Notes: a model not told the origin generated them from the sequence alone. Shown: positions 9,642 to 37,374, counted from the stretch's first letter. The stretch is 49,482 bases of DNA from Thermoproteota archaeon (GCA_041479945.1 JBGOYZ010000004.1:1-49482), one strand, 5' to 3'. Program-made: numbers and translations.

Positions 9642-11473
9642 CTACCCTTCTCGCTCGACCTCGCCCCAGTATCCCCAGTAAGGTTCAGTCTTTCTCTTTA
9701 TCGTTCCGACTTCCTCCAGCGCCTGCTGCAGATCCGGAGTGGCCAGGGAAGACAGAGTTGTCTTGATCTCATGAGCGTCAGACGAGGGGACATCAACGTA
9801 GAGGATCTGCCCTTCTCGAACGTTCCTGCCCACTGTGGCATCCGACACCGATATGGAGACCTCGTCGCCTGTCCTGGCCTCCTTCGACACCTCGTCCTTC
9901 AGCCGGATCGAATGGACATGCCCAACGGCTTCTCCCCCGGAGTTGAGCAACTTGGCCCCATCTCTCAGTATGCCCCTTTCCACTCGCACACCGAAGATCG
10001 CGGGTTTGCTCCTCCTGAACACGTAACCTGGTAGCACCAGCAACGTTGCGGGCGTCTGTATCTTGGCGAACCTCTCCGCATCTGTCGACTTCTCGTATTC
10101 TTCCTTCCAGTGCGTGTAGTCCTCCGTCAGACCGTAGATTATGTCCCCGGTGAATATCCTCACCCCTAGGTCCCTAGCTGATGACTCGACCTCCTGAGCT
10201 ACCTTTACGTTGAACGCCAACACCGCCCTGTTCGTAGCGCTTGAAGAGGCAGTGGAGGCCTCCACCACATCCTTCCTCGACACTGGTCCGATGTCGGCGG
10301 TCCTCACCTTGATGTTGACCTTCTGGAGCTCAAGGACCAGCGCCTCAAGGGAGCCCAAGGCGTCGGCTTTGACGATCAGGCCCTCGGTCTCCCTTCTGAA
10401 CATGAAGGTCGAGTACTCCTTGGACAGTTCATCGACAGCCTCCTTCTGCTCGGACTGGGAGTTGGCAACCATCAGGCTTGAGCCAGCGAGTGCCCCTTCG
10501 AGATCCGGTGCCCCCAACTTCACACCAGCCGAGGCGCGACAAATGCTGACCTGGGTGAACTTGTCCCTAGGATCGCGCATCTCATCCAGCGGCTTCGGGA
10601 CGAGAATCGCCCTCACCTTCGTGATGATCGGGCCAGAAGATCCGGACAGGACCACCGTGTCATTGACTGACAACTCGCCGTCGTACAGGATGACGTTGAG
10701 GGTGGGTCCCATCCCGACTTCTTTCTTGACCTCGAGAACTGTCCCCCTTCCTCTCTTGGACTTCACAGCCAGCGAATCGGACAGGTAGCTCTGGATCATC
10801 CCTGACATGACCGCTATCATCTCGGCCACGCCCTCGCCTGTCTTGGCGCTGAGCGGGATGACCGGTGCCTTTCCCTTGAACTCCCTGATGTTGTAGAACA
10901 AGTCCGCGTTGGACCCCAGCCTCGACAGCTCACCGACTATATCGTACAACTTGCCCTCCAATGTCCTGCGAACCTGCGGGTCCTGACTCTTCATTGACTT
11001 CAGGATGGACCGCGTCTTCTGTGGGACCCAGCCCTTCAGCAAGTCCACTTTGTTCGCGGCGATCACATATGGCGTGCTCCGCGTGTTGAGTATCTCAACT
11101 GATTCTATCGTCTGTGGCATCACTCCGGCAGTGACATCCACGACCAATATTGCGAAGTCGGCTATTGAGCCTCCCCTTTTCCTGAGGTTCATGAAAGCCT
11201 GGTGACCCGGCGTGTCTATGACCAGAAGGCCCGGTATCTTCAGCCTAGCGCCGACCTCTACTCCCTCGATACCCTTCACCACATCAAGGATCGTGTCTAG
11301 GGGTAGGTAGGAGGCACCCACGTGCTGGGTTATTCCTCCAGCTTCCCTCTTCGCGACCAGCGTCCCTCTGATCTTGTCTAGGAGGGAAGTCTTGCCGTGG
11401 TCCACTTAGCCCCCTCGCGGGTGTGGCCTAGAACCACGACTATCGGCTCCCTTAGGTACAGGGTTTGGCTCAC
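9642..11473 (-). CDS. infB: Translation initiation factor aIF5B/IF2, spliced: exon 1 11473-11423, exon 2 11405-9642 (604 aa predicted)
   Basis: Exon 1 reads MSQTLYLREPIVVVLGH and exon 2 VDHGKTSLLDKIRGT...EAGGITQHVGA...DTPGH...NKVD; removing 17 nt restores GHVDHGKT. Confidence 0.93.
11406..11422 (-). other. 17-nt BHB intron in aIF5B mRNA (ACCCGCGAGGGGGCUAA)
   Basis: Central helix GGCC/GGCU, bulges AC|A and AA|G, inner CCC-GCGA-GGG hairpin, outer helix UCUA/UGGA. Confidence 0.88.
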
Positions 11474-11502
11474 CTCGAAAACGTGGATGAATCCTCTTAG
11501 CT

Positions 11503-11949
11503 CTAATAAAGGTAATCTGAAAGCGGTTGATCCCAGTCCACTATCTCGTCGTCCTTGAATAGGATGCGGATTTCCTCCTCTGCTCTCTCGGCTGAGTCGG
11601 ATGCGTGGACGAGGTTCTTCCCTGTCGACATCGCGTAATCCCCCCTTATTGTGCCTGGAGCTGCTTCTGCGAATTTGGTCGCGCCCAACATCAAACGCAC
11701 GACGGACACCGCGCTCGGTCCCTTCACCACTATCGCGACCAGCGGACCCTTCGACATGAAGTCGACTAATTCCTGGTAGAAGGCTTTGCCCTTGTGCATT
11801 GAGTAGAGACGCTCGAGCTTGGCCTTGTCAGGAGACATCATCTTCAGGGCGACGATCTTCAGCCCTTTTCTCTCAACCCTGCTCATGATCTCCCCGATGT
11901 AGCCCCTGACGGCCGCGTCAGGCTTCAGCAGCACTAGGCTTCTTTGCAC
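11503..11949 (-). CDS. ndk: Nucleoside diphosphate kinase
   Basis: [12 protein letters not shown] and NLVHASDS motifs. Confidence 0.96.
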
Positions 11950-12127
11950 CTGAGACAGATTTCATCACCCACTTTACTTTCCTCGGGTTCCTCCTAAGCT
12001 TTAGAGAGTTCTTCCTGCACTTGGAGCTGCAAAACCAGAGCACCGACCCATCGTTCCGTGCGAAGAGAAGTCCTGTTCCGGGTTCAATTCCTCGGCCACA
12101 GAACGAGCATTTCCTCTCCCCGGGCAT
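11918..12127 (-). CDS. rpl24e: 50S ribosomal protein L24e
   Basis: CSFCG..IEPGTG, FCSSKC and RNPRKVKW motifs. Confidence 0.95.
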
Positions 12128-12334
12128 CTACCTTAGCCTCCTTGCCTCCCTCTCGTCATCCCTGAGCACTAGGTTCTCGCCAACTCGTACGGGCCCCCTT
12201 ATGTTCCTGAGAATGACCCTTCCCTTGTTCCTGCCGGTCTGAATCCTGACTCTGGCTTGGATGACCTCGCCTGTAGCTCCACCCCTTCCGATCAGCTCAA
12301 CGACTTCGGCGGTTATGTCTCCTTCTGAACTCAA
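12128..12334 (-). CDS. rps28e: 30S ribosomal protein S28e
   Basis: [24 protein letters not shown] and EREARRL motifs. Confidence 0.95.
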
Positions 12335-17429: not shown

Positions 17430-17530
17430 TGGGGTTGCTGAGCAACTGACAGGTTGAGAGAGGTCCCACCATATTTAATGGTTGTAAGTGACGTTCGTTC
17501 TGTCGAGCCAAGGGACTCAGTGGTCTGGGG

Positions 17531-18400
17531 CTATCGGCCGGTTGAACCCTTCTTGAACGCGACCGCAGAATAGCCAACGACTGCAGAGTTGTCGCCAGTG
17601 ATGTCTCCGCTCGTGTAGTAGCCCAGTACCTCTCCCTTCTCAGCACCTAGTCTCCGTGCTGCGGCCATGCACGACAATACCGGCCCCAGACCGCACAGAG
17701 ACTCAAACTCGTTAGCCACCTTCCAAGTCTTCTCTTCGTCAAGCGCCCTGATCTGTTCGAGCGTCCTCTTGTCCTGTTCGGAGGCCACTTTCGCTGGCAT
17801 GTAGTGGGTCATGTCGCTCGAGGCAACCAGCAGCGCATTGCGACCCGACAACGAGCCCGCTATCGACGAACCCAGCTCCTGGGCTGCCTTGAGGTCGTAC
17901 ATCCAGATGGATATCGGGACAATCTTGAAGGGATTGTCCTTGAAGACGTACTGTAGGAACGGCAACTGTATCTCCAAGGAATGCTCGGAGCGATGAGCAG
18001 TCTCGTCAAGGTCGGCTATCCCAGATCGCTTTGAGATCTCCCTTGCAGTTTCCAAGTCAACCTCAACCTCGCCCAGCGGAGTGCTCCAGACATCTGAAGG
18101 CGAAATGGCAATGCCTGAGCCCACTCCATGGTGGTTTGGCCCGAGGAGCACGACCAGGTCTCTGGGTCCGTTCGCAGCAACCTCGTAGTACGCTAGTGCG
18201 GCAGCCTGGCCAGAGTAGAGGTAGCCAGCATGAGGCGAGAGTACCCCGACCAAATCGTCACTCCGTTTTCCTAGCTTGGGCAGTCTGCCGGGGCCGTGTG
18301 GACCGAGGAACAACTCCTCGACCTGATGCCACAATGACTCCTTTGATCCTGCGTACCAGCTACCGGCGAAGACGGCCCTGCGAGTTGCTCTACTCGGCAA
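17531..18400 (-). CDS. MEMO1/AmmeMemoRadiSam protein B family
   Basis: R....AGSWY, PHAGY.YSG, GPNH, EHSLEIQLPFLQ and SSDMTHY motifs; TTG start at 18400 after GGAGG. Confidence 0.9.
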   Translation of the reverse strand: MPSRATRRAVFAGSWYAGSKESLWHQVEELFLGPHGPGRLPKLGKRSDDLVGVLSPHAGYLYSGQAAALAYYEVAANGPRDLVVLLGPNHHGVGSGIAISPSDVWSTPLGEVEVDLETAREISKRSGIADLDETAHRSEHSLEIQLPFLQYVFKDNPFKIVPISIWMYDLKAAQELGSSIAGSLSGRNALLVASSDMTHYMPAKVASEQDKRTLEQIRALDEEKTWKVANEFESLCGLGPVLSCMAAARRLGAEKGEVLGYYTSGDITGDNSAVVGYSAVAFKKGSTGR

Positions 18401-19034
18401 CCTCCACTTCCTCCACCGGGTATTCGAAGGCGGAGGCTGGCTCCGGCAGGTCTCCATTCGGTGGGATCGTGCCTCTCAGTCGACTGATCTCACGGGTCAA
18501 GATCCAGAAGATCAGAGCAAGTGATTTTCTCCCCTTGTTGTTTGCCGGGATTATCAGGTCGATGTTCTCGCAAGAGTTGTCCGTGTCGCACACCGCTATG
18601 ACGGGCACTCTCACGAGCGAGGCTTCCACTATCGCTTTCTCGTCAACCTTTGGATCCGCCACCACCAACAGAGAGGCGGGCCAATGGTAGCTCACCGCGG
18701 GGTTGGAGAATATCCCCGGTGGGAACCTCCTGACGATCGCCTTGAAGCTCGTGTACTCGCAGAACTTCTCTACCGGCTTCGCGCCGTACTCCTTGCTCGA
18801 TACGACGACGACCTTGGAGGTGTCTTGCTGCCTGGCAAGCATCTTTGCCGCTACCCTGAGCCTGAGGTCTAGTTTGTCCACATCTATCAGGTTAAGGCCA
18901 TCTGCTGCCTGTAACTTCACGAACTGTTTCATCTCTTTTGCTGCCACCTTCGTGCCTATGTGGACACCTGCGTTGATGTAGTCTGTCGGCGGCACCAGCA
19001 AGTCTTTGCCTGTGCTCATCTGGAACTCTGCCAA
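18390..19034 (-). CDS. rps2: 30S ribosomal protein S2
   Basis: Y..AGVHIGTK, RF.PG.F.NP and PANNKGRKSLALIFW motifs. Confidence 0.96.
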   Translation of the reverse strand: MAEFQMSTGKDLLVPPTDYINAGVHIGTKVAAKEMKQFVKLQAADGLNLIDVDKLDLRLRVAAKMLARQQDTSKVVVVSSKEYGAKPVEKFCEYTSFKAIVRRFPPGIFSNPAVSYHWPASLLVVADPKVDEKAIVEASLVRVPVIAVCDTDNSCENIDLIIPANNKGRKSLALIFWILTREISRLRGTIPPNGDLPEPASAFEYPVEEVEVAE

Positions 19035-19035
19035 C

Positions 19036-19248
19036 TTACCTCTTCACCCCTCCTGAGTAGGCCAGCACTTCGTCTATGTACTCGTAAGCTGAGACCACCA
19101 TCCTCCTGCAGCAGACCCTTTTGAGTCCTAGCGAATCCAACACGGCCTGCGGGTCCTCGCCCTTTTCCTTGGTTCTGATGAGGAACTCCTTGTACTTGTC
19201 CCCAATCACCTTGCCACACGTGAAGCACCTAACGGGTAGGATCATCAC
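19036..19248 (-). CDS. rpoN: RNA polymerase subunit N (Rpo10)
   Basis: PVRCFTCGK and R.CCRRM motifs. Confidence 0.96.
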
Positions 19249-19251
19249 ACA

Positions 19252-19665
19252 TCACCTGTAACTCTTCTGGAACTTCCTTCTGGCTCCAGGCCCTCCGAAC
19301 TTCTTGGGCTCCTTCGCCCTTGGGTCTCCCGAGAGGATGTGCTGGTCGTATGAGATGAGGGTCTTTCTGACCGTGGCCGACCTCGTCCATTTCACTATCC
19401 CGTTCGCCAAGGTCACCATGACCGCTCTGGCCTGAGAACTCCAACCTCCTCCGTCCACCCTGACGTGTACGTTCACCTCTTTGAACCGATCAGGCAGCAA
19501 CTTCACTGGCAAGGTAGACACCCCGCTCTGTATCCTGTTACCCCAGTTCTGTATGGGGATCGAGTTCACCTTGATCACTCCATTGCCCGGCTTGAACGTG
19601 GCTCTGGCTGAGGAGGACTTGATCCTAGCGGAAACGACAAGCGGAAGCTTCCTAGCTGGCGGCAA
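19252..19665 (-). CDS. rps9: 30S ribosomal protein S9
   Basis: V.GGG..SQA and DPR.KEPKKFGGPGAR..FQKSYR motifs. Confidence 0.96.
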   Translation of the reverse strand: MPPARKLPLVVSARIKSSSARATFKPGNGVIKVNSIPIQNWGNRIQSGVSTLPVKLLPDRFKEVNVHVRVDGGGWSSQARAVMVTLANGIVKWTRSATVRKTLISYDQHILSGDPRAKEPKKFGGPGARRKFQKSYR

Positions 19666-19675
19666 CTTCTAGCGA

Positions 19676-20116
19676 TCACCTGCCTCGACTGCGGATCCTA
19701 TCGGAGATCTCCTGCAGCTTGACGTACTTGTGGCTGAGCTTAGTTGCGCTTGTCCCCTCGAGTACCAATGGTTCGCCTTCAATGGCCGTCGGCATTTCCA
19801 AGTAGACCCTGAGCCTCTTGAGAGCCTCCCGGCCCTTTGGCTTCCTGTGTGGCAACATGCCGCGTATGGTGCGCCTCATCATCATGTCGGGCCGTGAGAA
19901 GTGTCTGGGTGTGTTCTTCGGATTGACTGCACTCCTCACATTCCCGAACTCCTGGATCTCCCTGAGGGTCGCGGTTTTCGTGCCCGAGATCACGGCCCCT
20001 CCTGCGTTCACAATCACGACCTTCTTTCCGTCCAATAGCATTTTCGCGACCATACTGGAAAGTCTACCGACCACTTGATTGTCCGCGTTCACTATCACAG
20101 TCGGCGATTCAGGCAA
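19676..20116 (-). CDS. rpl13: 50S ribosomal protein L13
   Basis: GRLSS.VAK.LL.G and RRTIRGMLP motifs. Confidence 0.95.
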   Translation of the reverse strand: MPESPTVIVNADNQVVGRLSSMVAKMLLDGKKVVIVNAGGAVISGTKTATLREIQEFGNVRSAVNPKNTPRHFSRPDMMMRRTIRGMLPHRKPKGREALKRLRVYLEMPTAIEGEPLVLEGTSATKLSHKYVKLQEISDRIRSRGR

Positions 20117-20462
20117 TAATCCTCACTCCTTTTCCGTCCGGTTTCTTCTTTGCCAGTTCGTTGAGACTCAGCACCTTCCCGCCAGCGCTCTGTATCGCCC
20201 TCGCGGAGCTGAGGGAGAAGTGCATTGCAGCGACCGTCAGAGGATGGTCAACCTTCCCGCCTCCGAGAACTTTTCCCGGGACCGCGACCGTTTCTCCGCT
20301 AGTCGTGAGCCTGTTCAGCCTGTCCAAGTTGACCACCGGGAAGTGGCTTCTCGGGCCTCGCACGGTCTCGGACAGAGTTGTCCATATCTCGGCCTTCTTT
20401 CCGGCCTTCTCGAGTTCCAGGCTCAGGTTCCTTCTCCTTTGAGACGTTCGCGCCTTGGGCAA
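20109..20462 (-). CDS. rpl18e: 50S ribosomal protein L18e
   Basis: VNL.RLNR, VPGKVLG.G and FS.SA..AI..AGG motifs. Confidence 0.93.
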   Translation of the reverse strand: MPKARTSQRRRNLSLELEKAGKKAEIWTTLSETVRGPRSHFPVVNLDRLNRLTTSGETVAVPGKVLGGGKVDHPLTVAAMHFSLSSARAIQSAGGKVLSLNELAKKKPDGKGVRIIA

Positions 20463-20465
20463 CTG

Positions 20466-21275: not shown

Positions 21276-21300
21276 CGAAACGAGCCGTGCGTCTCAACTT

Positions 21301-21344
21301 GTTATAAACGTTAGCTTCGCTCGTGTCAGCGATGTCTTTATTAG
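21301..21344. promoter_or_regulatory. Divergent TATA boxes for rpoD (TTTATAA, minus strand) and rps11 (TTTATTA, plus strand)
   Basis: Each lies about 26 nt upstream of its start codon, consistent with leaderless transcripts. Confidence 0.55.
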
Positions 21345-21369
21345 CCGCTGCAGGCGCTCGGCTTGAACG

Positions 21370-21765
21370 ATGAGCGAGAAGGCCGAGAAGTGGGCGATTG
21401 TCCACATCTACTCCAGCTTCAACAATACCATAGTCCATGCCACCGACTTATCTGGAGCCCAGACTCTGGCGTTCTCGAGCGGAGGCAGGCACGTGAAGGC
21501 TGACAGGCTCAAGCCGAGTCAGTACGCCGCAATGAGCGCGGCATTTGCTGTGGCCGGACAGCTCAAGGAGAAGAAGATCACGCACCTGCACATTGCTGTC
21601 AGGGGCGTAGGCGGGCATATGTCAAGGACGCCAGGACAGGGCGCGCAGTCCGCCATAAGGGCTCTGGCCAGGTCGGGGTTCGCGATAGGCCGAATAGAGG
21701 ATGTTACGCCGATACCGACGGACGGAACTAGAAGGCCCGGCGGCAGAAGAGGCCGCAGAATGTAG
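21370..21765 (+). CDS. rps11: 30S ribosomal protein S11 (inverted relative to neighbours)
   Basis: [18 protein letters not shown] and [22 protein letters not shown] motifs. Confidence 0.97.
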
Positions 21766-21768
21766 ACC

Positions 21769-22747: not shown

Positions 22748-22883
22748 CAGACCGTGCAACCATTCGGACCCTCTATTAATAGTTATTTCCTGTTTCTGGA
22801 CGTGTGAGCGATTCCCTCCTTCTGCGTTAACGTGGTGCGATCACGGATTGTGGAACTGCTAGGATGAGGCGCCCGGGGTGAGA

Positions 22884-22899
22884 CTTTCAGAGCACCTCT
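22884..22899 (-). other. 16-nt BHB intron at tRNA position 59/60
   Basis: UUCA/UGAA central helix, AG|A and AG|U bulges, GAG/CUC inner stem, T stem as outer helix. Confidence 0.88.
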
Positions 22900-22933
22900 C
22901 TTGAACTCACGCGGGCCCGAAGGCCCACAAGCT

Positions 22934-22944
22934 TTCTGAGCCGG
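22934..22944 (-). other. 11-nt intron at canonical tRNA position 37/38
   Basis: CUGG/UCAG helix closing a 7-nt loop, AA|A bulge, anticodon stem as outer helix. Confidence 0.8.
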
Positions 22945-22952
22945 CTCCAGGC

Positions 22953-22963
22953 ATAGGCGACTA
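22953..22963 (-). other. 11-nt intron at tRNA position 29/30
   Basis: GGGC/GCCU helix closing a 7-nt loop; removal restores CAAGC to pair with GCUUG. Confidence 0.75.
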
Positions 22964-23043
22964 TTGCCCCGTAACCGTGCTTGGGTACCCGGGCGCTGAA
23001 TCCTGATTCGACTCCACGCGATAATAAGATTTCTTCTGCGGGT

Positions 23044-24058
23044 TCATCTCCACATCTTGGGATACAGGTTCCTGTCCATCACAACCCGTTCAACCGCAAC
23101 GGCCATCCCCGTCTTGTCTGTGGCAAGCGCTGAGCCGTCCTTGCTGGCTCTCCCCATTGCCGCGAGTTCTCCCTTGAGGGTCTTGATAGCCACGATCTCA
23201 TGTTGGGCAATAGGCTCCTCAAACGATGATATTCCCCCCACCGCTAGGCTCGCACCGTGACAGACCGCGGCCACTGCGCTGTCTTTGATGTAGATCGAAG
23301 GAAACGTTGAGACAGCGGTCTCCACCGGGAGGAAGATCTTCCTCAACAGGGAATCGTCCCCGTTCCTCCGGTACAGCTCCAAGGAGGCCGCGACATCCCA
23401 CATCGAGTGGGCGTCCTTTTCGAGGAACGGCCCGTCTAGGGTTCTTCTCAACTCTGCCATGTGTGCCCCTGTCCCTAAGAGAAGGCCGAGGTCATTGATG
23501 AGCTTCCTAGCGTAAGTCCCTGATTCGGTTCCGGCCTTGAACAAGACCCTTCTGTCCTTCATCTCTAGCAGATCGAAGTAGTAGATCTCTCTAGTTCTCA
23601 GTCGCCTGCTGACAGCGGATCTGACCGGCGGCCGCTGGTAAATCTCCCCGATGAGTTCCTTCATTGCCTTCCTCACGCGGGCTTCGCCCACCTTCGCGTG
23701 GAGTTCTCCGACTCCGACGTATTCCTTGTTGAAGGTGTGCGTGTACGACATGATGTTAGTAGCATTGCCTGTGAGCACGACGAGCACGCCGGTTACCTGG
23801 GGATTTCCCCGATCAGATCACTAGGGTCCCCGTGTGACCGGCCCTGTCGACTTTGATTAGCCTCTTGAAGTTGGCGACCACATCATGGCTGGTTGGGCCT
23901 TTCTGCTTGTCCAACACCACGGTCGCCAAGTTCATCAGAAGGTCGACTGGCCTGGAGCGCGGGTTATGTCCGTACTCCCAAGATGGCTCGGATTCCTCAC
24001 GAACTATCAGTTTCCTCGTCCTCTGGGGTATCCTCGTCTCTCTCAATCTCCTTTCCAC
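23044..24058 (-). CDS. cbf5: H/ACA pseudouridine synthase Cbf5, spliced: exon 1 24058-23821, exon 2 23804-23044 (332 aa predicted)
   Basis: LDK..GPTSH.V and GHTGTL in exon 1, then DPQVTGVL, KEYVG, YQRPP.RSAV, GTY.RKL and a PUA domain; removing 16 nt restores the catalytic Asp codon. Confidence 0.95.
23805..23820 (-). other. 16-nt BHB intron in cbf5 mRNA (UGAUCUGAUCGGGGAA)
   Basis: CCCU/GGGG central helix, AG|U and AA|A bulges, GAU/AUC inner stem, GGGGA/UCCCC outer helix; same GTLD motif as known crenarchaeal cbf5 introns. Confidence 0.93.
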
Positions 24059-25348: not shown

Positions 25349-25352
25349 CCGG

Positions 25353-25940: not shown

Positions 25941-25977
25941 GTGAGGCGCGCTACCCTTTTCGATTTAAACGTGAGGT

Positions 25978-27414
25978 TCAAGTTAGGCCTGGCAGTATCC
26001 GCCCGAGCCTCGGGTAGAGTTGCGTTATCTGTTCCCGAGCGATATCCTCGTACAGCGAGTACACGATACCCACGCACAGCATGAGCCCAGTACCAGAGCC
26101 AAAGGCTCCGAACATGTCCCCGAGGCTTGCCAGCAAGCCGACAAGGGCCCCGCCCACCACCGTGACCACGCCCAGGTAGTCCGAGATTATCGCCTCCAAA
26201 GGCTTGTTCGATGCCCTGAAGCCCGGGACAACCGCCCCAGCATCCATCAACTGTTGGGCGATCGACCTTGGGTCCATTCCCGCAGTGTAGACCCAGAGTA
26301 TTGAGAAAACTACACAGAAGCTCACCAAGACGAGCATGTAAATCAGACTTCGAACTGGATCTGCCATCGTCTCGGTGATGTTCCTCGGGGCGCTGGTGTA
26401 GTAGACTAGACCGCTCAGAGCACGACCTGAGGTGGCGTTCACCTCGCCGATGATGCCCCCCAGTGTTACGTTCATGAAACCGATCGATGCTATCTGCTTG
26501 TTGCTTTGCACGAAGTAGGAGACAAGCGTCAAGTTCGCGAACACCGCAGCCGCTAGGATTATCGGCAGGGTTGAGACGAACAGGAGCTTGATCGGGTAGT
26601 TACCGCTGAACCCCCTCGCCCTTGCTGATGACACAGGAACCTGTACGCTGACGTTCTCCAAGTACACCACTATCGCCAGAAGCGCCAGCGTGACGAAGAC
26701 TCCGCTGACCGTGGGGAGATTGGGGTCCGGGCTTCTGACGAATAGCATCGCAGGCGTCAGTTTGCCGGCAAGGGCTGCTTGCACGAATGCTATCACTACG
26801 CCATCTGCGAGGCCATCGCTCATTGGGATCGGGGAGAACAGCGACCATGTTATCTCGCGCGCAACTCCGGCGAGGATGAAGAGGCTTATTCCACTGCCTA
26901 TGCCCCAGCCCTTCTGCAACAACTCGTCGAGCATCAAGATCACTATTCCGGCGAAGAGCAGCTGAGCGAATATCACCACCTTCGTGGTCAGATCGAGGGT
27001 TCCGTATGATCCACCGAAAGCGTAGAGGGCAGCCATGACCACAGAGAAGAGAAGGGCGGAAGCCTTGTTTGAGGCAGCGAACAGCTCTCTGTCCTCGGGC
27101 GAGTTCTTGTCGTACGAAATGAAACCGGTTCCGGCCAACAGCTGAAGGATGAGACCACCCGTCACTATGGGTCCGATGCCCAGTTCCGCCAGTGAACCCC
27201 TAGCGCCGCCTATGATGACTCTCATCTGTCTGAGAGGATCTGCGGTCTGCGTTGGAATCCCGAAAAGGTCGATGTAACCCATGATCAGGTAGATTATGAG
27301 GGCGACCGCGGTCCAGATCAATCGCTCAGTCAGGCGAGGCTTTCTTTCCGGCTTCACCACCTCGGGTACAAGCCTGCCCACAGACGCTGTTACCTCAATG
27401 AGTCTTACCAACAC
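25978..27414 (-). CDS. secY: Preprotein translocase SecY (Sec61 alpha)
   Basis: ELGIGPIVT, DELLQKGWGIGSGISLFI, YPIKL, PGFR and GSGTG motifs. Confidence 0.97.
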   Translation of the reverse strand: MLVRLIEVTASVGRLVPEVVKPERKPRLTERLIWTAVALIIYLIMGYIDLFGIPTQTADPLRQMRVIIGGARGSLAELGIGPIVTGGLILQLLAGTGFISYDKNSPEDRELFAASNKASALLFSVVMAALYAFGGSYGTLDLTTKVVIFAQLLFAGIVILMLDELLQKGWGIGSGISLFILAGVAREITWSLFSPIPMSDGLADGVVIAFVQAALAGKLTPAMLFVRSPDPNLPTVSGVFVTLALLAIVVYLENVSVQVPVSSARARGFSGNYPIKLLFVSTLPIILAAAVFANLTLVSYFVQSNKQIASIGFMNVTLGGIIGEVNATSGRALSGLVYYTSAPRNITETMADPVRSLIYMLVLVSFCVVFSILWVYTAGMDPRSIAQQLMDAGAVVPGFRASNKPLEAIISDYLGVVTVVGGALVGLLASLGDMFGAFGSGTGLMLCVGIVYSLYEDIAREQITQLYPRLGRILPGLT

Positions 27415-27426
27415 AGTTCACCAGAT

Positions 27427-27834
27427 CTAGGGTTTCCTGATCGAGCCTCCAGCTGCCTTCACTTTCTCTTCCGCTCTCTTTGACCAAGAGCTTACGATGA
27501 TCTCAACATTCTTAGGAGCGACTCCTCCACCGAGGAGCTTGCCCACGCCCATCGATGAAAGGTCAATGGTCGGCTTCCCGGCCCCTGCCGCTGGCGATGC
27601 TGCGAGACGCTCCAACTGCATGAGGTTCACTGCCTCGACCGGTTTCCTGATCGGCTTGCGTACGAACCCCCTCGTCGGGCCTCCCTGAGCCAGGAACAAC
27701 GCGAACTTGGTACCGGCCCCCCCTGACATACCCCTTCCCCCCTTTCTGCTTGATCTCCTGTGTTGCGCCACTCGGCCCCAGCCGGCGGTGCGACGTCCCC
27801 TCATCTTCCTGGTCTTCCTGAGGTCGTGCGGCAT
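27427..27834 (-). CDS. rpl15: 50S ribosomal protein L15
   Basis: RKTRKMRG.RT.GWG, GGRG, KLLG.G and S..A.EK...AGG motifs. Confidence 0.93.
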   Translation of the reverse strand: MPHDLRKTRKMRGRRTAGWGRVAQHRRSSRKGGRGMSGGAGTKFALFLAQGGPTRGFVRKPIRKPVEAVNLMQLERLAASPAAGAGKPTIDLSSMGVGKLLGGGVAPKNVEIIVSSWSKRAEEKVKAAGGSIRKP

Positions 27835-27841
27835 TGACAGC

Positions 27842-28387
27842 TCACTCTACCCTGATCTCCTCGCCGGAAGGCGCACTCGGGGTCTTCTTGGTCAACGTGA
27901 CTTCAAGTACTCCGTTCTTGTAAGTGGCCTTTCCGGACTTCGGTTCCACCTCGGCGGGCAGGACAAGCTCCTTGAGGTATTTTCTCAGCTTTGACTTGGC
28001 CTCTATCTTCACCTTCCTGCCATCGCAGATGATGTCTATGTCATTCTTCTCTACGCCCGGAACCTCAGCGACCACAGTGATCTCCTTCTCCTTCTCAACG
28101 ACATCGGCAAGCGGTTCTATCTCATCACTAACGTTCGGGGTCAGTCCCTTCCTCTTCACGTTGCCGAACTCCCTGATAACAGGCTTGCCGTCCAGGCCTA
28201 CGCTGATCGAGAAGCCGTAGTACTGAGGATGACCCAACTTGTCCCATTCCTCAGGTGAGAACTCGGAGGAGAACCCCTCAAGCGTGTGGTCCATCTCCTC
28301 GATGTCCTTGAATATCTCCTTCCAGAACTTGTCCAAGTAAGTATACCTCTTTTTCAACCAGTCATCCCACTCATCATCAGGAACCAT
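27842..28387 (-). CDS. hsp20: Small heat shock protein Hsp20 (archaeal type)
   Basis: YYGFSI.VG.DGKP.IREFGN, EPL.DV, AE.PGV.K.DI, A.YKNGVLEV and C-terminal I.VE; ATG 28387 lies about 30 nt after TTTTTAA. Confidence 0.93.
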   Translation of the reverse strand: MVPDDEWDDWLKKRYTYLDKFWKEIFKDIEEMDHTLEGFSSEFSPEEWDKLGHPQYYGFSISVGLDGKPVIREFGNVKRKGLTPNVSDEIEPLADVVEKEKEITVVAEVPGVEKNDIDIICDGRKVKIEAKSKLRKYLKELVLPAEVEPKSGKATYKNGVLEVTLTKKTPSAPSGEEIRVE

Positions 28388-28501
28388 ATCGTGCCTTTCG
28401 TGGTCGGACGACACGCCTTAAAAACCTTCCAGTGATTTGGCCCGCGGGAAAGAGAAGCTTCTGAGGGTCGGAACTATGAACGATGCGACAATCGATTGCC
28501 G

Positions 28502-29014
28502 CTAGATCATTCTGCTGACGAGTTCGTTTATTCCCTTGCCCAGGTGTCCGGAGATCGAAGTATTTCCTTTCTTTCCTCTTCTCGACCGCTCCAGTTTCAC
28601 GTGATATCCCTTTCTCGGAGGGGGGAGCCTGAACCACGGTTTCACCCCGGGCAGGGCTGAGAAGTCAGCCTTGAAGGACAGTAGTGACTTGGCCAACTCG
28701 GCAAAGTCACCAACGCCCAAGTGTTCCTTCAGGTATTCCTGATCCACTTGCTTGTTGCCCGCCAGTCGAGCTCGCTTCTGCAGTAGTCTGGTCAGGGTCT
28801 CTTCGTCAACTTCCCCCCAAGCAACAAAATCCTTGATGTGCTGCAGCGCGCCTATGACGCTCGGTTCGCCTGGATGCAGTGTCGCGGTGTGGACGCGACC
28901 CAGTCGAAGAGCCTCCAGCGTGCCCTTCATGTCTTTCCTGACGTTTACTGTTCCTCTGATCCTAACCACTAACAGCAACGGATTGGCAGCCTGTTGCTTG
29001 CTCAACTTAGGCAC
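28502..29014 (-). CDS. rpl30: 50S ribosomal protein L30 (uL30)
   Basis: VVRIRG, TL..LRL, WGE, FRL.PPRKG and INEL..RM motifs. Confidence 0.93.
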   Translation of the reverse strand: MPKLSKQQAANPLLLVVRIRGTVNVRKDMKGTLEALRLGRVHTATLHPGEPSVIGALQHIKDFVAWGEVDEETLTRLLQKRARLAGNKQVDQEYLKEHLGVGDFAELAKSLLSFKADFSALPGVKPWFRLPPPRKGYHVKLERSRRGKKGNTSISGHLGKGINELVSRMI

Positions 29015-29639
29015 CCCAATCGGATTGAGTTGTGGTCATGTAGGTCTTCCTGAGCGCGTCGAATGTCGCCATGACTGTGGACACGGGAGTTGCCGTGCTT
29101 CCTGATGTCCTCGACCACACGTCACGAATGCCAGCCAGCTTCAGCATGACCTTCGTTGCCTCGCTTGCGACAAGGCCCAAGCCCTTCGGAGCCGGTATCA
29201 AGTCAACCCGCACCGAGCCTGTCTTTCCAGATATCTTGAAAGGCACAGAGTGCAGCTGCCCGCACTTGCATTCCCAAGAGCCACACCCTCTTCTCACGGC
29301 GATCGAACTCAGCTTCGCCCTCCTAGACGCTTTGCCAATGGCCTCACTGACTTGGGCAGCTTTTCCCACGCCGAAGCCCACGTGACCGTCCTCATCGCCG
29401 ATCACGAGGATGGCTCTGATCTTCGTCCGCTCGCCCGCGTCAGTCTGCTTCTGGACCGGGCTCATTGATATGAGCTCCTCCCGGAGCTTGGGCATAAGGA
29501 GGTCAACGACCTGAGGATCCTTGATCTTGTAGCCCAGCTCGAAGTACTCTTCGAGTGACGTGACTCTGCTGGACTTGACAGCATCTAGTCCCTCGTCAGA
29601 CGCCGCCTGCTTCTCTCCCGCTGTTCCTCCTTCAGACAT
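29007..29639 (-). CDS. rps5: 30S ribosomal protein S5
   Basis: VQKQTDAG.R, RGCGSWEC.C, PAPKGLGLV and AGIRDVW motifs. Confidence 0.96.
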   Translation of the reverse strand: MSEGGTAGEKQAASDEGLDAVKSSRVTSLEEYFELGYKIKDPQVVDLLMPKLREELISMSPVQKQTDAGERTKIRAILVIGDEDGHVGFGVGKAAQVSEAIGKASRRAKLSSIAVRRGCGSWECKCGQLHSVPFKISGKTGSVRVDLIPAPKGLGLVASEATKVMLKLAGIRDVWSRTSGSTATPVSTVMATFDALRKTYMTTTQSDWGA

Positions 29640-30195
29640 GCTCGCTCACTTCACCTTCTCTTATCTTTGTCACCAACGAGTTGAACTCCTCTGTGATCGA
29701 CTTCGGGTCTATTCCCGCTCCCTTGAGCTTCGAGAACGCCACGCCAGTCTGCTGCGTTCCGGCGAACTCCGCCAAATGACCTCCGCGAATCCGCTCCTCG
29801 GAAGGCGCAACCGATTCATCGAACATCACCTTGAGACCTGAATCAATGCAGCCTTTTGCCAACGCGAACAACCTGTTCCCCCTTGTTGGTGTGGCCAGAC
29901 CCATGTCCAGTATCACTTCGCCCAAATTCAACCCCGAGGCCCTCTTGGCTAGGAGACACCCTGTAAGGTACGAGGCAGGGACATTGCTCAGCCCAAAGTG
30001 CCAGCCCAACTTGCTCAATTCCTTGGAAACAGCTGAGGCAATGGTCCTGTCGCCTTTCTGGTCAACGGTCACGATCGCAGCGCTGATGTACTTGTTCGAT
30101 ATCCTGCAGACAACCCTCGGCAACCTCGACTGGAGGAACCTCTTCCTCTTCCGATAGTTGGTCAGCCCCTCTCGTCTTCTCCTGAGCGGGCTCAT
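29632..30195 (-). CDS. rpl18: 50S ribosomal protein L18
   Basis: RRRREG.TNY.KR, N.PASYLTG and G..DSGL motifs. Confidence 0.95.
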   Translation of the reverse strand: MSPLRRRREGLTNYRKRKRFLQSRLPRVVCRISNKYISAAIVTVDQKGDRTIASAVSKELSKLGWHFGLSNVPASYLTGCLLAKRASGLNLGEVILDMGLATPTRGNRLFALAKGCIDSGLKVMFDESVAPSEERIRGGHLAEFAGTQQTGVAFSKLKGAGIDPKSITEEFNSLVTKIREGEVSEHV

Positions 30196-30653
30196 CTCTT
30201 TGTCCTCCTCGCTGTCTTCCTACTGGGCGTGACTTGGTCCAGCAGCTCTCTGACTGACGAGAACCTGCCACCTTTGACCTGCAGGTAGAGCTTCCTGTAA
30301 CGCTTGCTCTCTACCTTGCCGCTCTTCTTCAGCTGCCTGAGGGCGCGCCTCATCGCTCTCACTCTAGCAGGCCACTCTGATGTCCGACCTGTCCTTGCTC
30401 CCTTCGCCCCTTTCCTGCTACCAGGCCCTCTCCTTCTGCCTCTCCTCCTAGCCATGGCGAACGCTCTCTTCCTGCCCCTGGACGGCGTAGAGGATGGCCT
30501 CTTGGTTATGATCCCCTCCTTGATCAGCCGCCGGACATCCTGTCTTGTCACGGCAGACTCCAAGTCCTCGAGTCTGTCGGGGTCCATCCATATTCTGGTC
30601 TCTCCGACCTTCAGGACATCAGCCGCGATCCTCTTCACTGTTTTGACAGTCAT
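30192..30653 (-). CDS. rpl19e: 50S ribosomal protein L19e
   Basis: KRIAA.VLKVG..RIW.DP, RG.GSRKG and YR.LY..KGG.F motifs. Confidence 0.96.
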   Translation of the reverse strand: MTVKTVKRIAADVLKVGETRIWMDPDRLEDLESAVTRQDVRRLIKEGIITKRPSSTPSRGRKRAFAMARRRGRRRGPGSRKGAKGARTGRTSEWPARVRAMRRALRQLKKSGKVESKRYRKLYLQVKGGRFSSVRELLDQVTPSRKTARRTKR

Positions 30654-30659
30654 CTTGGA

Positions 30660-31049
30660 TCACTCGAACACCTCTTCCCTGAACGGATTCGCGACCCTGA
30701 CGCCGATCGACCTGGCCTTGTCAGTGATGGCCCGCTTCATCCTCCTGCCGACTCTCGCGGAGATAACCACGATCACATCTTGGTCAGGGAGTCGCTCCAC
30801 CTGCTCCACGTTCGAAACCATGACAGGCCTGAGACCAGAAGGGTGAAGACCTCTGATAGTCTTGGGCGTCCCATATCCGACCTTGACCGTTGGCGGCACT
30901 CCCTTCGTTTCCTTCCTCATCTTGTTGTCGAGCCCCTTCGGTCGCCTCCATGCCTCCGAGAGCTTGTCGTACTTCCAGCTCTCTTGCCTCCTGAACTTGG
31001 GCGTCCTCTTCCTCGGCTTGAAGCGCTTCTTACTGAATTCAGGGCTCAA
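30660..31049 (-). CDS. rpl32e: 50S ribosomal protein L32e
   Basis: F.RQE, WRRPKG.DNK and RGLHPSG motifs. Confidence 0.96.
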   Translation of the reverse strand: MSPEFSKKRFKPRKRTPKFRRQESWKYDKLSEAWRRPKGLDNKMRKETKGVPPTVKVGYGTPKTIRGLHPSGLRPVMVSNVEQVERLPDQDVIVVISARVGRRMKRAITDKARSIGVRVANPFREEVFE

Positions 31050-31055
31050 GACTTC

Positions 31056-31625
31056 TCACCGCTTTATCTCGTCCTCATAACGCTTGCTCTGGACGTAGAT
31101 GCCGTCCAAGTAAATCCTCTGGTCCTTGCCGATCGTCTTTGTCTTGGTTTCGACCGACCCAGCGAACTGAGTGGCGCTCTCAATATCAACACTTGTGACC
31201 GTTATGTCCTGCCCCTTAACCTCGACCTGCACGCCGGGCGGGATCGCCACTTTTCTGGGGGTCCTCTCTCCCATAAAGTTCTTCACGCTGAAGACTGCAC
31301 CCTGTGCCTCAATCGTTGGGGGGAAGTGCGAGAACACCAACTTCATATCGACGATGTAGTGGACCTTGACGCCTCTCATCATGTTGGACAGTCTCTTTAC
31401 GATCGCCCCGACCATTGCCTTGCCTCTCCTGCCCTTGAGATCCGTGGATACTTCCAGCTTCGCTTCCCCTTTCGTGATCTTCACCCTCGTCTTCGAGAAG
31501 TCCTTGGACATGGTGCCGAGCGGGCCCGTAGTCTTGACCACAGGGCCGCTGACTTCCACCTGGACTCCTTCCGGGATCACAACCTCGGACTTGGCAGTGA
31601 CCTGTCTGAGGTTTTCAGTATACAT
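31056..31625 (-). CDS. rpl6: 50S ribosomal protein L6
   Basis: IPEGV.V, GPLG, HFP, NF.GE..PR and D.R...DGIY motifs. Confidence 0.95.
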   Translation of the reverse strand: MYTENLRQVTAKSEVVIPEGVQVEVSGPVVKTTGPLGTMSKDFSKTRVKITKGEAKLEVSTDLKGRRGKAMVGAIVKRLSNMMRGVKVHYIVDMKLVFSHFPPTIEAQGAVFSVKNFMGERTPRKVAIPPGVQVEVKGQDITVTSVDIESATQFAGSVETKTKTIGKDQRIYLDGIYVQSKRYEDEIKR

Positions 31626-32007
31626 ATGCTAGCAGCTTACCTCCCAACCTCTTCTCTCTGGCCTCGATGTGCGACATCACTCCCTCTGGAGTGGTCACAA
31701 TGATTACGCCCACGTTGTAGGCCGGCAGGAGTTTTTTCTCCCACTCCGTGTACTCGTCCGCCTTGGTGCTCCACCTCGGCCTGACGGACTTGCTTCTGTT
31801 GATCCTGCCGAGCAACTGGACCTTGAACATGCCCGCCTTCCCATCATCTATGAACTCGAACTCACCGATGTAGCCGTACTTCTGAAGCACCTGCATTATC
31901 TTGCCCACCAAGTTCGATGCGGGCCAGATCGTGCAGCTCTTCAGGTTCCTCAACTCGCTGTTCTGCAGCGCGATCATCGCGTTGGAAACCGGATTCATGA
32001 GCGTCAA
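31615..32007 (-). CDS. rps8: 30S ribosomal protein S8
   Basis: GYIGEFE.IDDG..G.F.V.L.GRIN, T..GVMSH and GG.LLAYVY motifs. Confidence 0.96.
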   Translation of the reverse strand: MTLMNPVSNAMIALQNSELRNLKSCTIWPASNLVGKIMQVLQKYGYIGEFEFIDDGKAGMFKVQLLGRINRSKSVRPRWSTKADEYTEWEKKLLPAYNVGVIIVTTPEGVMSHIEAREKRLGGKLLAYVY

Positions 32008-32024
32008 TTTGCCGTCAGGTCACC

Positions 32025-32189
32025 TCACGTGTATTTCCTGAATCCAAGCGTCTTCGCAACCTCCCTGAAGCAATTACGGCAGTAGTTGAGTCCGTAGGAC
32101 CTAATCGTCGGACCGGTTGACTTGCATCTGACACAGGCATGAACCTTCTTTCCGAACTTCCGCTCCTTCGGTGCCTTCTTCTTTGCCAA
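32025..32189 (-). CDS. rps14: 30S ribosomal protein S14 (54 aa, absent from the ORF track)
   Basis: Manual translation [54 protein letters not shown]; lies between rpl5 and rps8. Confidence 0.93.
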
Positions 32190-34854: not shown

Positions 34855-34855
34855 C

Positions 34856-35050: not shown

Positions 35051-35744
35051 TCTCCTCACCTTCCTTCAATTCTGGTTTCTGCTTCTCGCCCTCGGGCTTT
35101 TCCTCGCTGGGAATATTCTCGCTAGCGGGCTTCTCGGAGACCTTTTCCTCCTTGAGCTTCAGCACTTCAACTTGATCAGGGAACTTGGCATTAGGGGGCA
35201 GAATCTTCACCTTTATGCCAATCAACCCCTTCGGAAGTAGCAGGTTCATGGTGGCGACCCTGAGTTGTCTCTCCTTGGGCTCACCAGTTGACGGTATGTA
35301 ACCGAAAGTATATTTCTCAAACCTCGATCTTTCCGATGTGAGCTTCCCGGCCAAGCGTATCTGAGCACCGATCGCGCCGGCTTCCTTTATTCTCCTCGTG
35401 TAGAGGCGCAGAACTCTCCTGTATCTGATTCCCCTCTCGAGTGCCTCCCCTATCCTAGTCGCGACAACGTTCGCGTCGAGCATGGGGTTCTCCAACTCCG
35501 TGACTGATATCTGCGGGTTCTTCAAGCCGAAGTTCGCGGCCAGCTTGTCGGATAACTCTCTGATGTTCCTGCCACCGGGCCCGATTACCTGACCTGGATG
35601 GCCGACTACCAAAGTCAAGTTGACCCCCAGCGGCGTCTTGACCATCTTCATCTCCGAGAAACCAGCAGCCTTCAATTCTTTCTTCAGGAACTCCTCAACC
35701 CCGACCCTCAACTTCGCGTCTGAGACTATCTCCTTCATCGACAT
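35031..35744 (-). CDS. rps3: 30S ribosomal protein S3
   Basis: KH domain PG.VIG.GG..I..L, GA.G..I...GKL and G.IG.KVKI motifs. Confidence 0.96.
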   Translation of the reverse strand: MSMKEIVSDAKLRVGVEEFLKKELKAAGFSEMKMVKTPLGVNLTLVVGHPGQVIGPGGRNIRELSDKLAANFGLKNPQISVTELENPMLDANVVATRIGEALERGIRYRRVLRLYTRRIKEAGAIGAQIRLAGKLTSERSRFEKYTFGYIPSTGEPKERQLRVATMNLLLPKGLIGIKVKILPPNAKFPDQVEVLKLKEEKVSEKPASENIPSEEKPEGEKQKPELKEGEENAEEKA

Positions 35745-35746
35745 GA

Positions 35747-36214
35747 TCAGGACACCTCGCTGGCCACCAGTTCTATGTGAACGAGTTCATCGATCTTCGG
35801 CGAAGTCCTGCCGAAAGCCCTAGCGAAGAACCTGACCATCTTCCTTCCGGGATAAGCCGAGGCGCTGATTATCCTGAGCCCATCGACATCAAAACCTCTG
35901 TCGATGGCATTTGCCTCGAGGGTGTTTATGAGATCGATGAAGCGGGCAGCCGCCTTCTTGGGGAAACGTCCCGCATGAAACTTCCCGATTCCCCTCCTGT
36001 GCCCTATCTTCCTGTTGTACCTTCTGAACGGGACTGCAGCCTCGCCGCTGACGACTCGCTCAAGCATCGACCTAGCTTCCGAGATCTTTGAGCCCTTTAT
36101 CCAACCGGCGATTTCCCGAGCGTGCTTCCTCGAGACCCTTACTTCCCTGAGGCTAGCTCTGACGACCCCTTTTTCGGGGACTTGTCCTTCCCAAGAGTAT
36201 CCGAATTTTGGCAT
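35747..36214 (-). CDS. rpl22: 50S ribosomal protein L22
   Basis: S.KHAREI, VPFRRY, GRFP.KAA and RAFGR motifs. Confidence 0.96.
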   Translation of the reverse strand: MPKFGYSWEGQVPEKGVVRASLREVRVSRKHAREIAGWIKGSKISEARSMLERVVSGEAAVPFRRYNRKIGHRRGIGKFHAGRFPKKAAARFIDLINTLEANAIDRGFDVDGLRIISASAYPGRKMVRFFARAFGRTSPKIDELVHIELVASEVS

Positions 36215-36354
36215 CTGCGCCTACTCAGCTCGAAATCGTGACCTCGCACGCAGCCCTCTAAATAAAAGTTGTGCCCCGCGGGCCAACGACAGCGAATTCA
36301 GGTTGCCCAAGTCAGACTCTCCTTGTCATTGCACGAACTTGCCAACGAGTCTTC

Positions 36355-37374
36355 TCACTCAAGCAACACCATCTCGCTTGTGTCCGGACCAGTGCTGACA
36401 TATCTGACTGGAACTCCGACTTCCACCTCGACACGTCGCACGAATTCGAGACACTTGGGGGACAGACCATCCACCGTCTTGGCCGAGGAACACTCGGGGA
36501 AGAGGATGTCCAGCTTCGTGACCGCGATTGAGGTCGCTCCGTTCACCCTCGCGGCTCTCCTTGCCAGTTTGAAGTCGAAGGGCGCCGCCCTCCTCGTCCT
36601 ACCTGTGATGGTCCCTTTCTCCGACCAACCTCTCGCGGCAGTTTCTTGGGGGTCGAGTTCACCGGGCAAAAGCCCTTCTCCAACCCTCGTCATGTAGGAT
36701 TTGAGCACGAGGACCACGTCACTGACCATCTTCGGCCCAACTCCAACTTCGCTGAGCACTGCCGCTGCGGTCGTGTCTCTCCCGGTGACGAAGGGATATG
36801 TCCCATGGTAGAGGCTCAAGTAGAAACCCTGACTTCCTTCCAGATGAACTGTCTCCCCAGAGTCCAGAATCGAGTGGACTTCCTCAGACACGTCAGTCGT
36901 CAAGCCTTTCAGTTCGTCGAAATCCTTGGCGAGCCTCGCTCTCCGTCGGACTCTGTCAGCGATGGTCGGTCCCACACCTGAGCCGGTCGTGCCCACAACC
37001 CCTTTCAGGAACTCGTCCGATCTGTCCTCGTTGATGTGGTGCGCTTCTATCACAGAGGCCATCGAATCGACCTTCAGCCTCCCAGCCAAGCCGAGATAAT
37101 CCATCTCCGACCTCAAGATTGCCAAGTCTACGTTCGCTCCCGCCGCGATCCTCAGCTGGGTGGTTGGGTTGACGAATGCGCTGGGCGTCAGTCTCAGCTT
37201 GTAGGTCTTGCCATCATGGATCACGGTGTGTCCAGCGTTGACTGATCCGGTCCTTACGGACAATTCCGGGCGATCCTTCAAGGCAAGGTAGGCAGCCACC
37301 TTGCCCTCTTGGGGCGGTCAGTGCCGCTTTCCCTCATCGCCCCAGAATCCGGAGACTATTACTACGAGACTCAT
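36355..37374 (-). CDS. purA: Adenylosuccinate synthetase (short archaeal type), spliced: exon 1 37374-37329, exon 2 37307-36355 (332 aa predicted)
   Basis: MSLVVIVSGFWGDEG(K) joined to GKVAAYLA, then NAGHTV, GTTGSGVGP, EGSQG, YPFVT, TRVG.G and TGR.RR. Confidence 0.92.
37308..37328 (-). other. 21-nt relaxed BHB-like intron in purA mRNA (AGCGGCACUGACCGCCCCAAG) carrying an in-frame UGA
   Basis: Inner stem GCGG/CCGC, central helix GGG/CCC plus an A.A mismatch, bulges AA|A and AG|A; removal gives GDEGKGK. Confidence 0.8.

Follow-up and report, generated by a model that had tools for sequence, protein, structure and literature searches.

How could housekeeping genes that are interrupted within their catalytic motifs still give rise to proteins? 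The question is raised by a stretch of DNA from a Thermoproteota archaeon (GCA_041479945.1, JBGOYZ010000004.1:1-49482), of which the full 49,482 nt were analysed and are referred to here as the window. An initial annotation of this sequence had described infB (encoding aIF5B), cbf5 and purA as each split near the 5' end, inside a catalytic motif, by an insert of 16-21 nt, and the three inserts do lie there, at 11406-11422, 23805-23820 and 37308-37328, all on the minus strand. Our analysis indicates that they are most probably archaeal bulge-helix-bulge (BHB) introns in protein-coding mRNAs, which the endonuclease EndA would excise and whose flanking exons the ligase RtcB would join. The proposal of the initial annotation that several core mRNAs carry tRNA-type introns thus gains support from conserved sites, covariation, intron-free alleles, independently assembled DNA and the presence of genes for EndA and RtcB.

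The source genome (G000) is a metagenome-assembled genome (MAG) of 111 contigs (numbered C1 and so on below) that is 91% complete. For each gene, 40 related genomes were searched; one of the relatives (G001) is of the same genus, and G000-G005 belong to one family. Further points of reference were G026, a genome from the same phylum that is complete (1,620,156 bp) and poor in introns, and G032 and G039, two complete single-contig genomes of another family. The clade is uncultured and inhabits sediment and wetland, and the stretch is present in 20 DNA runs from 20 studies. The closest named aIF5B proteins come from MAGs labelled Candidatus Brockarchaeota or Thermoproteota, and matches of the Cbf5 protein in named genomes reach at most 50% identity. 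The BHB rule stands here for a cut after the second nucleotide of each 3-nt bulge, and h, H and h' denote the outer helix, the helix between the two bulges and the inner helix, respectively. Counts of compensatory pairs, obtained with RNAalifold, are descriptive and are not probabilities, since the sequences are related.

In infB, the reading ..REPIVVVLGH is followed by the 17-nt insert, ACCCGCGAGGGGGCTAA, and then by VDHGKTSLLDKIRG.., so that the interruption falls between ..VVVLGH and VDHGKT. The 3' open reading frame (ORF) matches NF003078 with 713.8 bits and begins at position 21 of the 598 in that profile, after the 17-codon 5' exon. Taken alone, the region folds into a helix, a 3-nt bulge, a 4-bp helix, a second 3-nt bulge and a helix (z = -3.47), with CCC-GCGA-GGG as the inner hairpin; the minimum free energy (MFE) structure shows a 2x4 internal loop on the 3' side, where the canonical 3-nt bulge appears instead if the pairing is put in an A-U / U.G register. 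The intron occupies the identical site in all six family members; outside the family, five genomes have an unbroken motif, and a further 19 loci, in which the anchor pattern did not find it, went unscored. Between the source genome and its same-genus relative, the 5' exon differs at a single, synonymous position, and changes in the intron are confined to the loop (GCGA to GUAA). In other genera, the inner helix reads CCUU/AAGG, and in one family member (G003) H reads GGUC/GACU; the alignment of the six family members yields 17 pairs, of which three are compensatory and none is broken.

A second canonical infB intron, of ~18 nt, with H = GGGA/UCCU and predicted cuts at UA^A and AG^A, splits the protein motif between GGIT and QH in sister genera as well as elsewhere in the order, in other families (loci L005-L008, L027). 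It was read directly in G002-G006, was inferred from split matches in G007, G009 and G010, and is absent from the source genome (window 11330-11350) and from the same-genus genome, a distribution that points to gain or loss of infB introns within the family. In public gene calls of close relatives, aIF5B is annotated as 587 aa, which corresponds to a protein cut at the first intron, or as 520-548 aa, cut at the second, and these truncated proteins are without the G1 P-loop.

The cbf5 insert, TGATCTGATCGGGGAA, separates the first from the second letter in the catalytic Asp codon (GTL-D-PQVTG): ..AGHTGTL and the first letter of the codon are followed by 16 nt and then by 'at' and PQVTGVL.. (cta g, 16 nt, at ccc). 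The 5' piece ends at position 66 of the family profile and residue 2 of the 3' ORF corresponds to position 74, with positions 67-73 accounted for by six exon codons outside the query and the ORF start codon. On its own, the region folds as h-B-H-B-h' (z = -1.4), with an outer helix of GGGGA/UCCCC and an inner hairpin of GAU-CUG-AUC. An insert of 11-34 nt in the Asp codon was found in 29 of 30 loci, all through the uncultured order and also in several families elsewhere in the phylum; H is kept in 13/13 aligned sequences, and 2/13 pairs are compensatory. In a large genus, g6 (L150-L165), the cbf5 intron measures only 13 nt (A AGCAAU GGGG AG) and is without an inner helix, which places it among the smallest BHB introns encountered in this analysis.

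In purA, MSLVVIVSGFWGDEG and the first letter of a Lys codon precede a 21-nt insert, after which the reading continues as ..GKVAAYLAL... The insert is in frame, carries a TGA and lies between GDEGK and GK, and its end coordinate in the initial annotation agrees with the BHB-consistent border. The 16+2+1 codons ahead of it put the start of the 3' ORF at profile position 20. Here H is AGGG/CCCA (three pairs and an A.A mismatch), the bulges are AAA and AGA, and the inner hairpin is GCGG-CACUGA-CCGC. Among 30 purA loci, 14 carry an intron of 15-28 nt at this site (with lengths of 15, 17, 20, 21 and 28 nt among the relatives), 15 are intact and one was unscored. An alignment of 11 sequences recovers GGG/CCC, the 3-nt AAA bulge and h', with 3/6 pairs compensatory; the partner strand is a full CCCU in most relatives and has changed to CCCA in the source genome. 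Relative to the same-genus genome, the 5' exon shows two synonymous and no non-synonymous differences, and the substitutions in the intron sit in the loop. In G032 and G039 (L135, L136), the 28-nt purA intron would be cut 1 nt further 3' (phase 2 vs phase 1), which may reflect either intron sliding or an independent insertion.

If the inserts were retained, translation would stop after a further 15 (infB), 3 (cbf5) and 2 (purA) codons, i.e., prematurely, as had been anticipated. Once they are removed, the coordinates in the NCBIfam models become contiguous, and in all three genes the junction required by homology is exactly the one given by the BHB cut rule, as the initial annotation had asserted for the restored motifs. 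Genome-wide, 162,622 of ~1.6x10^8 (position, length) pairs, the latter figure computed by hand, combine a 4-bp H with at least three outer pairs, a background rate of ~0.1%. At this rate, chance is an unlikely source of a canonical BHB at a junction that homology has already fixed.

Since the window held three such genes, the initial annotation had expected many more in the genome. We compared 3216 ORFs (at least 80 aa) of the intron-poor genome with the source genome by tblastn; 772 had hits, 479 of them at E<1e-15, and some of the 479 are antisense shadows of real genes. The screen covered genes with an orthologue in the intron-poor genome, apart from their C-terminal and very short exons. 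It recovered the three window cases and three others, aEF-2, pyrG and dnaG, which were verified by alignment to relatives. A test for split matches gave five rows, of which aEF-2 and cbf5 were real and three, within the 23S rRNA gene, were rejected as spurious ORFs. In a test for displaced N-termini (313 hits), four hits scored 146, 93, 50 and 48 against a best decoy of 28, and five other candidates scoring at least 28 were dropped as indistinguishable from decoys. A test for in-frame stops beside a gap gave six rows; dnaG and purA were real, three rows on C3 and C13 were rejected as ordinary indels seen through antisense ORFs, and the row at C4:20815-21180 is antisense to an ORF at 20466-21275. 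At least six protein genes therefore bear introns. Since half of the cases found sit on the window contig, which makes up 3.7% of the genome, the window is atypically rich; the expectation of further cases was right, while that of many overshot, the screen of 479 ORFs having added only three.

The three further introns differ in how widely they are shared. The aEF-2 intron (H = AGGU/GCCC, 3/4 pairs; z = -4.1 for the region) was found in the source genome only among six genomes examined, and the five relatives are intron-free and show the exact junction. An alternative junction at VEG and P.. was rejected, the alignment to these relatives placing it between GTA A and TG. A search allowing up to 3 mismatches found the core of this intron nowhere else in the genome, and hence there is no sign of a multi-copy mobile element. 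In pyrG, the intron has a canonical hBHBh' structure (H = GCUC/GAGC, with a 6-bp inner helix) and is present in three of nine sequences examined, the other six showing the exact junction. The dnaG intron is present in 9/10 sequences examined across the order, with 5/15 pairs compensatory, these lying in the inner helix. Its H pairs GUGG with CCAC, CCGC or CCAA, the source genome having GUGG/CCAA (3/4 pairs); a reading of the insert as 15 nt was rejected, since the 24-nt solution fits all nine relatives. With these genes included, the profile coordinates are contiguous after insert removal in all six, and cleavage as predicted by the cut rule would in each restore the motif and frame of the intron-free relatives (Table 1).

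Table 1. Intron-bearing genes of the window and of the rest of the source genome, with the predicted exons and introns.
Feature	Position	Strand	Remarks
infB 5' exon	11423..11473	-	GTG start and 16 codons; ends ..VVVLGH, phase 0
infB BHB intron, 17 nt	11406..11422	-	A CCC GCGA GGG GGCU AA; H = GGCC/GGCU; bulges ACA, AAG
infB 3' exon	9642..11405	-	587 codons and stop; begins VDHGKT
tRNA-Ser(GGA), 125 nt, three BHB introns	22870..22994	-	Mature ~87 nt; directly downstream of cbf5
tRNA-Ser intron 1, 11 nt	22953..22963	-	Anticodon stem 5' strand (29/30); H = GGGC/GCCU
tRNA-Ser intron 2, 11 nt	22934..22944	-	Canonical 37/38; H = CUGG/UCAG; outer helix = anticodon stem
tRNA-Ser intron 3, 16 nt	22884..22899	-	T-loop (59/60); H = UUCA/UGAA; h' = GAG/CUC
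cbf5 5' exon	23821..24058	-	79 codons and first letter of Asp codon; NF003280 profile positions 2-66
cbf5 BHB intron, 16 nt	23805..23820	-	U GAU CUG AUC GGGG AA; H = CCCU/GGGG; bulges AGU, AAA
cbf5 3' exon	23044..23804	-	NF003280, 296.5 bits; ORF part = profile positions 74-319
purA 5' exon	37329..37374	-	ATG, 14 codons and first letter of Lys codon (..GFWGDEG-K)
purA relaxed BHB intron, 21 nt	37308..37328	-	A GCGG CACUGA CCGC CCCA AG
purA 3' exon	36355..37307	-	NF003295, 419.4 bits, from profile position 20
aEF-2 intron, 31 nt	C1:65515-65545		Splits GTA A from TG in ..DSVEEV-M-VQTETV
pyrG (CTP synthase) intron, 22 nt	C6:27026-27047		Inside GGVLSS-VGKG, between S and V
dnaG intron, 24 nt	C5:39204-39227		Phase 0; carries TAG

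Introns of the same design occur in the tRNA-Ser(GGA) gene beside cbf5, for which the initial annotation had correctly announced three. These were placed by hand against the intron-free tRNA-Ser(GGA) found next to cbf5 in G034 and G028, and the borders of intron 1 can slide by 1 nt. Introns 1 and 2 have a 4-nt loop and are without h'. Intron 3 has the bulges AGA and AGU, and in the MFE structure its H and the AGU bulge appear, with the T-stem acting as outer helix; its build of 1+3+3+3+4+2 is that of the cbf5 intron. The tRNA-Ser fold has a z of -3.66. ARAGORN and Rfam, at the gathering and E-value thresholds, detected no RNA gene of any kind within the window, tRNAs included, and thus missed this one. 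The order cbf5 - tRNA-Ser(GGA) is kept across families (window 22866-24058; L157, L167, L172), and the number of introns in this tRNA is zero in G034 and G028, apparently one in G023 and three in the source genome. Elsewhere in the genome, RNase P RNA, 23S and 16S rRNA form a group on the minus strand of C5:40801-46187 (L258:1-5387), and the 16S match spans 1564 nt vs a 1478-position model, such that it may hold a small insertion or intron.

Not all of the predicted structures are equally complete. Two full 3-nt bulges and a 4-bp H are present in infB, cbf5, pyrG and the three tRNA-Ser introns. By the definition of the canonical hBHBh' motif given in the available text of PMC7714728, in which h and h' each have at least 2 Watson-Crick pairs, the infB, cbf5, pyrG and T-loop introns are canonical, with both outer and inner helices. 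All 18 bulges of the nine introns of the source genome begin with A (ACA, AAG, AGU, AAA, AGA, AAU, AGC, AUG).

Several observations weigh against splicing by this route. In the source genome, the H of purA, dnaG and aEF-2 has only 3/4 pairs, with the outermost pair mismatched, and the three motifs are of the relaxed HBh' form, in which h' is present and the outer helix is distant or none. Specifically, purA is without an adjacent outer helix and its single-sequence MFE favours another fold (z = -0.6), as does that of dnaG (z = -0.7); the claim of the initial annotation that every insert folds with its exon into a BHB therefore stands for infB and cbf5 by themselves, and for purA not as a single sequence and only in relaxed form. 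A scan of the genome by structure alone (4-bp H, at least three outer pairs, ORF-joining) did not separate BHB candidates from decoys made by shifting the 3' site by 1 nt (1218 hits vs 1227.5) and was powerless; hence, BHB-likeness alone proves nothing without a junction defined by homology. Two metatranscriptomes of a related study contained no matches to the stretch, which is uninformative on expression, and among the runs recorded with the stretch none is RNA. Finally, the genome holds an intact, intron-free PurA paralogue (C18:11159-12175; L259:660-1676), 338 aa in length and with GDEGKGK intact. As for the mismatched helices, relatives hold the full 4-bp H for both purA (CCCU) and dnaG (CCAC, CCGC).

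The enzymes that such splicing would call for are encoded in the genome. Two genes belong to the EndA family (PF01974). The 184-aa product is closest to the catalytic subunits 3p1z_B (5e-43), 3ajv_B and 2zyz_B of two-subunit crenarchaeal enzymes; the 218-aa product carries an Ala opposite the M. jannaschii enzyme's catalytic His, and its resemblance to fused EndA models is to their structural, N-terminal half. Together they would constitute an EndA of the two-subunit, crenarchaeal, (alpha-beta)2 type. A gene for RtcB (PF01139, 564.3 bits) lies at C5:11390-12697. Enzymes of the (alpha-beta)2 type are reported to cut relaxed motifs, according to the available text of PMC5829648 and PMC2724299. 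We propose that in the pre-mRNA the last nucleotides of the 5' exon would pair with the 3' end of the intron to form a helix of ~4 bp with a 3-nt bulge on either side; the two-subunit EndA, the same enzyme as for tRNA introns, would cut after the second nucleotide of each bulge; and RtcB would ligate the exons, restoring reading frame and catalytic motif. On this model, at least six essential or housekeeping mRNAs, for aIF5B, Cbf5, PurA, aEF-2, CTP synthase and DnaG, would need splicing.

Cleavage and ligation of these mRNAs, and EndA and RtcB as their agents, are inferred, and this leaves some room for removal at the RNA level by something else, such as another nuclease or self-cleavage, more so in that three of the six motifs are relaxed. 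We consider it improbable. The same geometry, cuts after the second bulge nucleotide around a helix of ~4 bp, recurs in six genes and three tRNA introns, and the inserts, at 16-31 nt, are to our knowledge too small for any class of self-splicing intron. Moreover, the available text of PMC2738675 reports that the hetero-oligomeric EndA cleaves the cbf5 intron known from this very site.

A different possibility is that the inserts are never removed and that the genes are decaying pseudogenes whose function is supplied by other copies. The PurA paralogue on C18 speaks for this view: it is 41% identical to the window copy and scores 373 bits against a cutoff of 368, and since it is intact, purA function does not strictly require splicing. 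Also, in a MAG that is 91% complete, an unseen copy of another gene is conceivable. Yet infB, cbf5, aEF-2, pyrG and dnaG have one match each in the genome, and as single-copy genes they cannot all be dead. The long 3' exons remain open and reach full equivalog scores, the interruptions persist across genera and families with changes that preserve the helices, and the infB and purA 5' exons differ only synonymously from those of the same-genus genome. An intact paralogue beside an otherwise decayed copy would, according to the initial annotation, have told against splicing; the paralogue exists for purA, but the window copy is not decayed, since its frame is open, it is 89% identical to the same-genus orthologue and it outscores the paralogue on the archaeal PurA model (419 vs 373 bits). 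No second purA-type gene was found in any other genome searched (E<=1e-20); two matches in G017 were rejected as separate genes, being parts of one gene split between contigs. We thus give pseudogenes very little weight.

Ribosomal recoding, i.e., frameshift, bypass or stop read-through instead of RNA splicing, appears equally implausible. It draws on the fact that the purA (21 nt) and dnaG (24 nt) inserts are in frame, such that read-through of one stop would yield a continuous protein, and earlier authors mistook cbf5 cases for frameshifting, as related in the available text of PMC2738675. Read-through, however, would put 7-8 foreign residues into the P-loop of PurA, and some relatives' inserts hold two stops. 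The insert lengths vary through all phases (15-28 nt in purA, 11-34 nt in cbf5) while the exon junction stays fixed, and it is RNA pairing that is conserved, not any recoding signal.

That the inserts are assembly or sequencing artefacts, a worry with any metagenome assembly in 111 contigs and one raised by the initial annotation, is scarcely credible and is refuted for cbf5 and purA, since 17450-32028 and 35236-37449 are covered gaplessly by contigs from an independent sediment run, which list no deletion at the inserts and span those of cbf5, tRNA-Ser and purA; two public metagenome contigs carry the aEF-2 insert unchanged, and separately assembled relatives, which are the DNA support for the infB insert, have homologous inserts of differing sequence.

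BHB introns in protein-coding mRNAs thus remain the reading that we favour. A further and far more speculative idea is that the clade carries an old, still-growing set of EndA-dependent mRNA introns, a kind of post-transcriptional 'splicing regulon' of the translation and nucleotide-supply core; we think this rather unlikely. Under such a scheme, the cbf5 and purA introns appear ancient, being shared beyond the order (purA also in two complete genomes, slid by 1 nt), the dnaG intron appears order-wide, the first infB intron and that of pyrG appear to be of family level, and the aEF-2 intron is apparently species-level and recent. The targets comprise the translation GTPases aIF5B and aEF-2, Cbf5, DnaG, and PurA and PyrG of the ATP and CTP branches, and every insertion point falls within a catalytic motif. 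If this were so, expression of the translation and nucleotide-supply core would depend on tRNA-splicing capacity, and the clade would be a present-day case in which protein-spliced introns are moving into coding genes.

Splicing of these mRNAs, if it takes place, has consequences beyond the window. mRNA splicing by EndA and RtcB would be a routine step of gene expression in a whole clade, whose public annotation would be systematically wrong; since intron-bearing genes may be counted as pseudogenes or as truncated, estimates of completeness and reconstructions of metabolism would be biased. The gain and loss of protein-spliced coding introns would also become testable, as the recent aEF-2 intron stands beside ancient, shared sites.

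Several known systems bear comparison. In the unconventional splicing of HAC1/XBP1 mRNA by IRE1 and RtcB in eukaryotes, a system mentioned in PMC13149111, two stem-loop sites of the mRNA are cut by a protein endonuclease, and a ligase of the RtcB type then connects the exons, with a change of reading frame as the outcome. The proposed splicing would work alike, but IRE1 is unrelated to EndA, is regulated by stress and has one target, and we do not claim membership of that system. Closer at hand is the BHB intron of the cbf5 pre-mRNA of Crenarchaeota, reportedly described by Watanabe et al. in 2002. In the available text of a later study (Yokobori et al., 2009; PMC2738675), the cbf5 intron occurs only in Desulfurococcales and Sulfolobales, with lengths of 16-44 bp. 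The cbf5 intron of the window lies at the same site, between letters 1 and 2 of the catalytic Asp codon, its 16 nt fall within that range, and it has the same predicted cut between the second and third bulge residues and the same hetero-oligomeric kind of EndA. It belongs with the published introns in these respects, while its occurrence in an uncultured clade widens their distribution beyond the two orders; also in contrast to the published cases, some relatives carry an 11-13 nt version without an inner helix, and cbf5 is here one of at least six intron-bearing protein genes.

The Haloferax volcanii HVO_1309 intron (Schwarz et al., 2020; PMC7714728) is described there as likewise an EndA substrate in an mRNA, but it lies in the 5' untranslated leader of a euryarchaeal transcript, whereas coding sequence is interrupted here. 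The available text of that article names cbf5 as the only other archaeal mRNA with a reported BHB intron, and a search of full-text literature returned no report of BHB introns in infB, purA, pyrG, dnaG or EF-2, and none for Brockarchaeota. The mechanism is known; what is new is the host genes, the number per genome, the depth of conservation and the lineage, and the introns are unusually numerous in the source genome. Multiple non-canonical tRNA BHB introns are reported from Thermoproteales, from Caldiarchaeum (PMC3082918) and from Asgard wetland genomes (PMC11291895), as far as the available text of these sources extends. The window tRNA-Ser, with introns at 29/30, 37/38 and 59/60, resembles such multi-intron tRNAs in motif, tiny size and presumed enzymes, and the mRNA introns share the same motif. 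Their hosts differ, however: in the mRNAs, coding constrains the exon half of the motif, and recognition has no help from a tRNA body.

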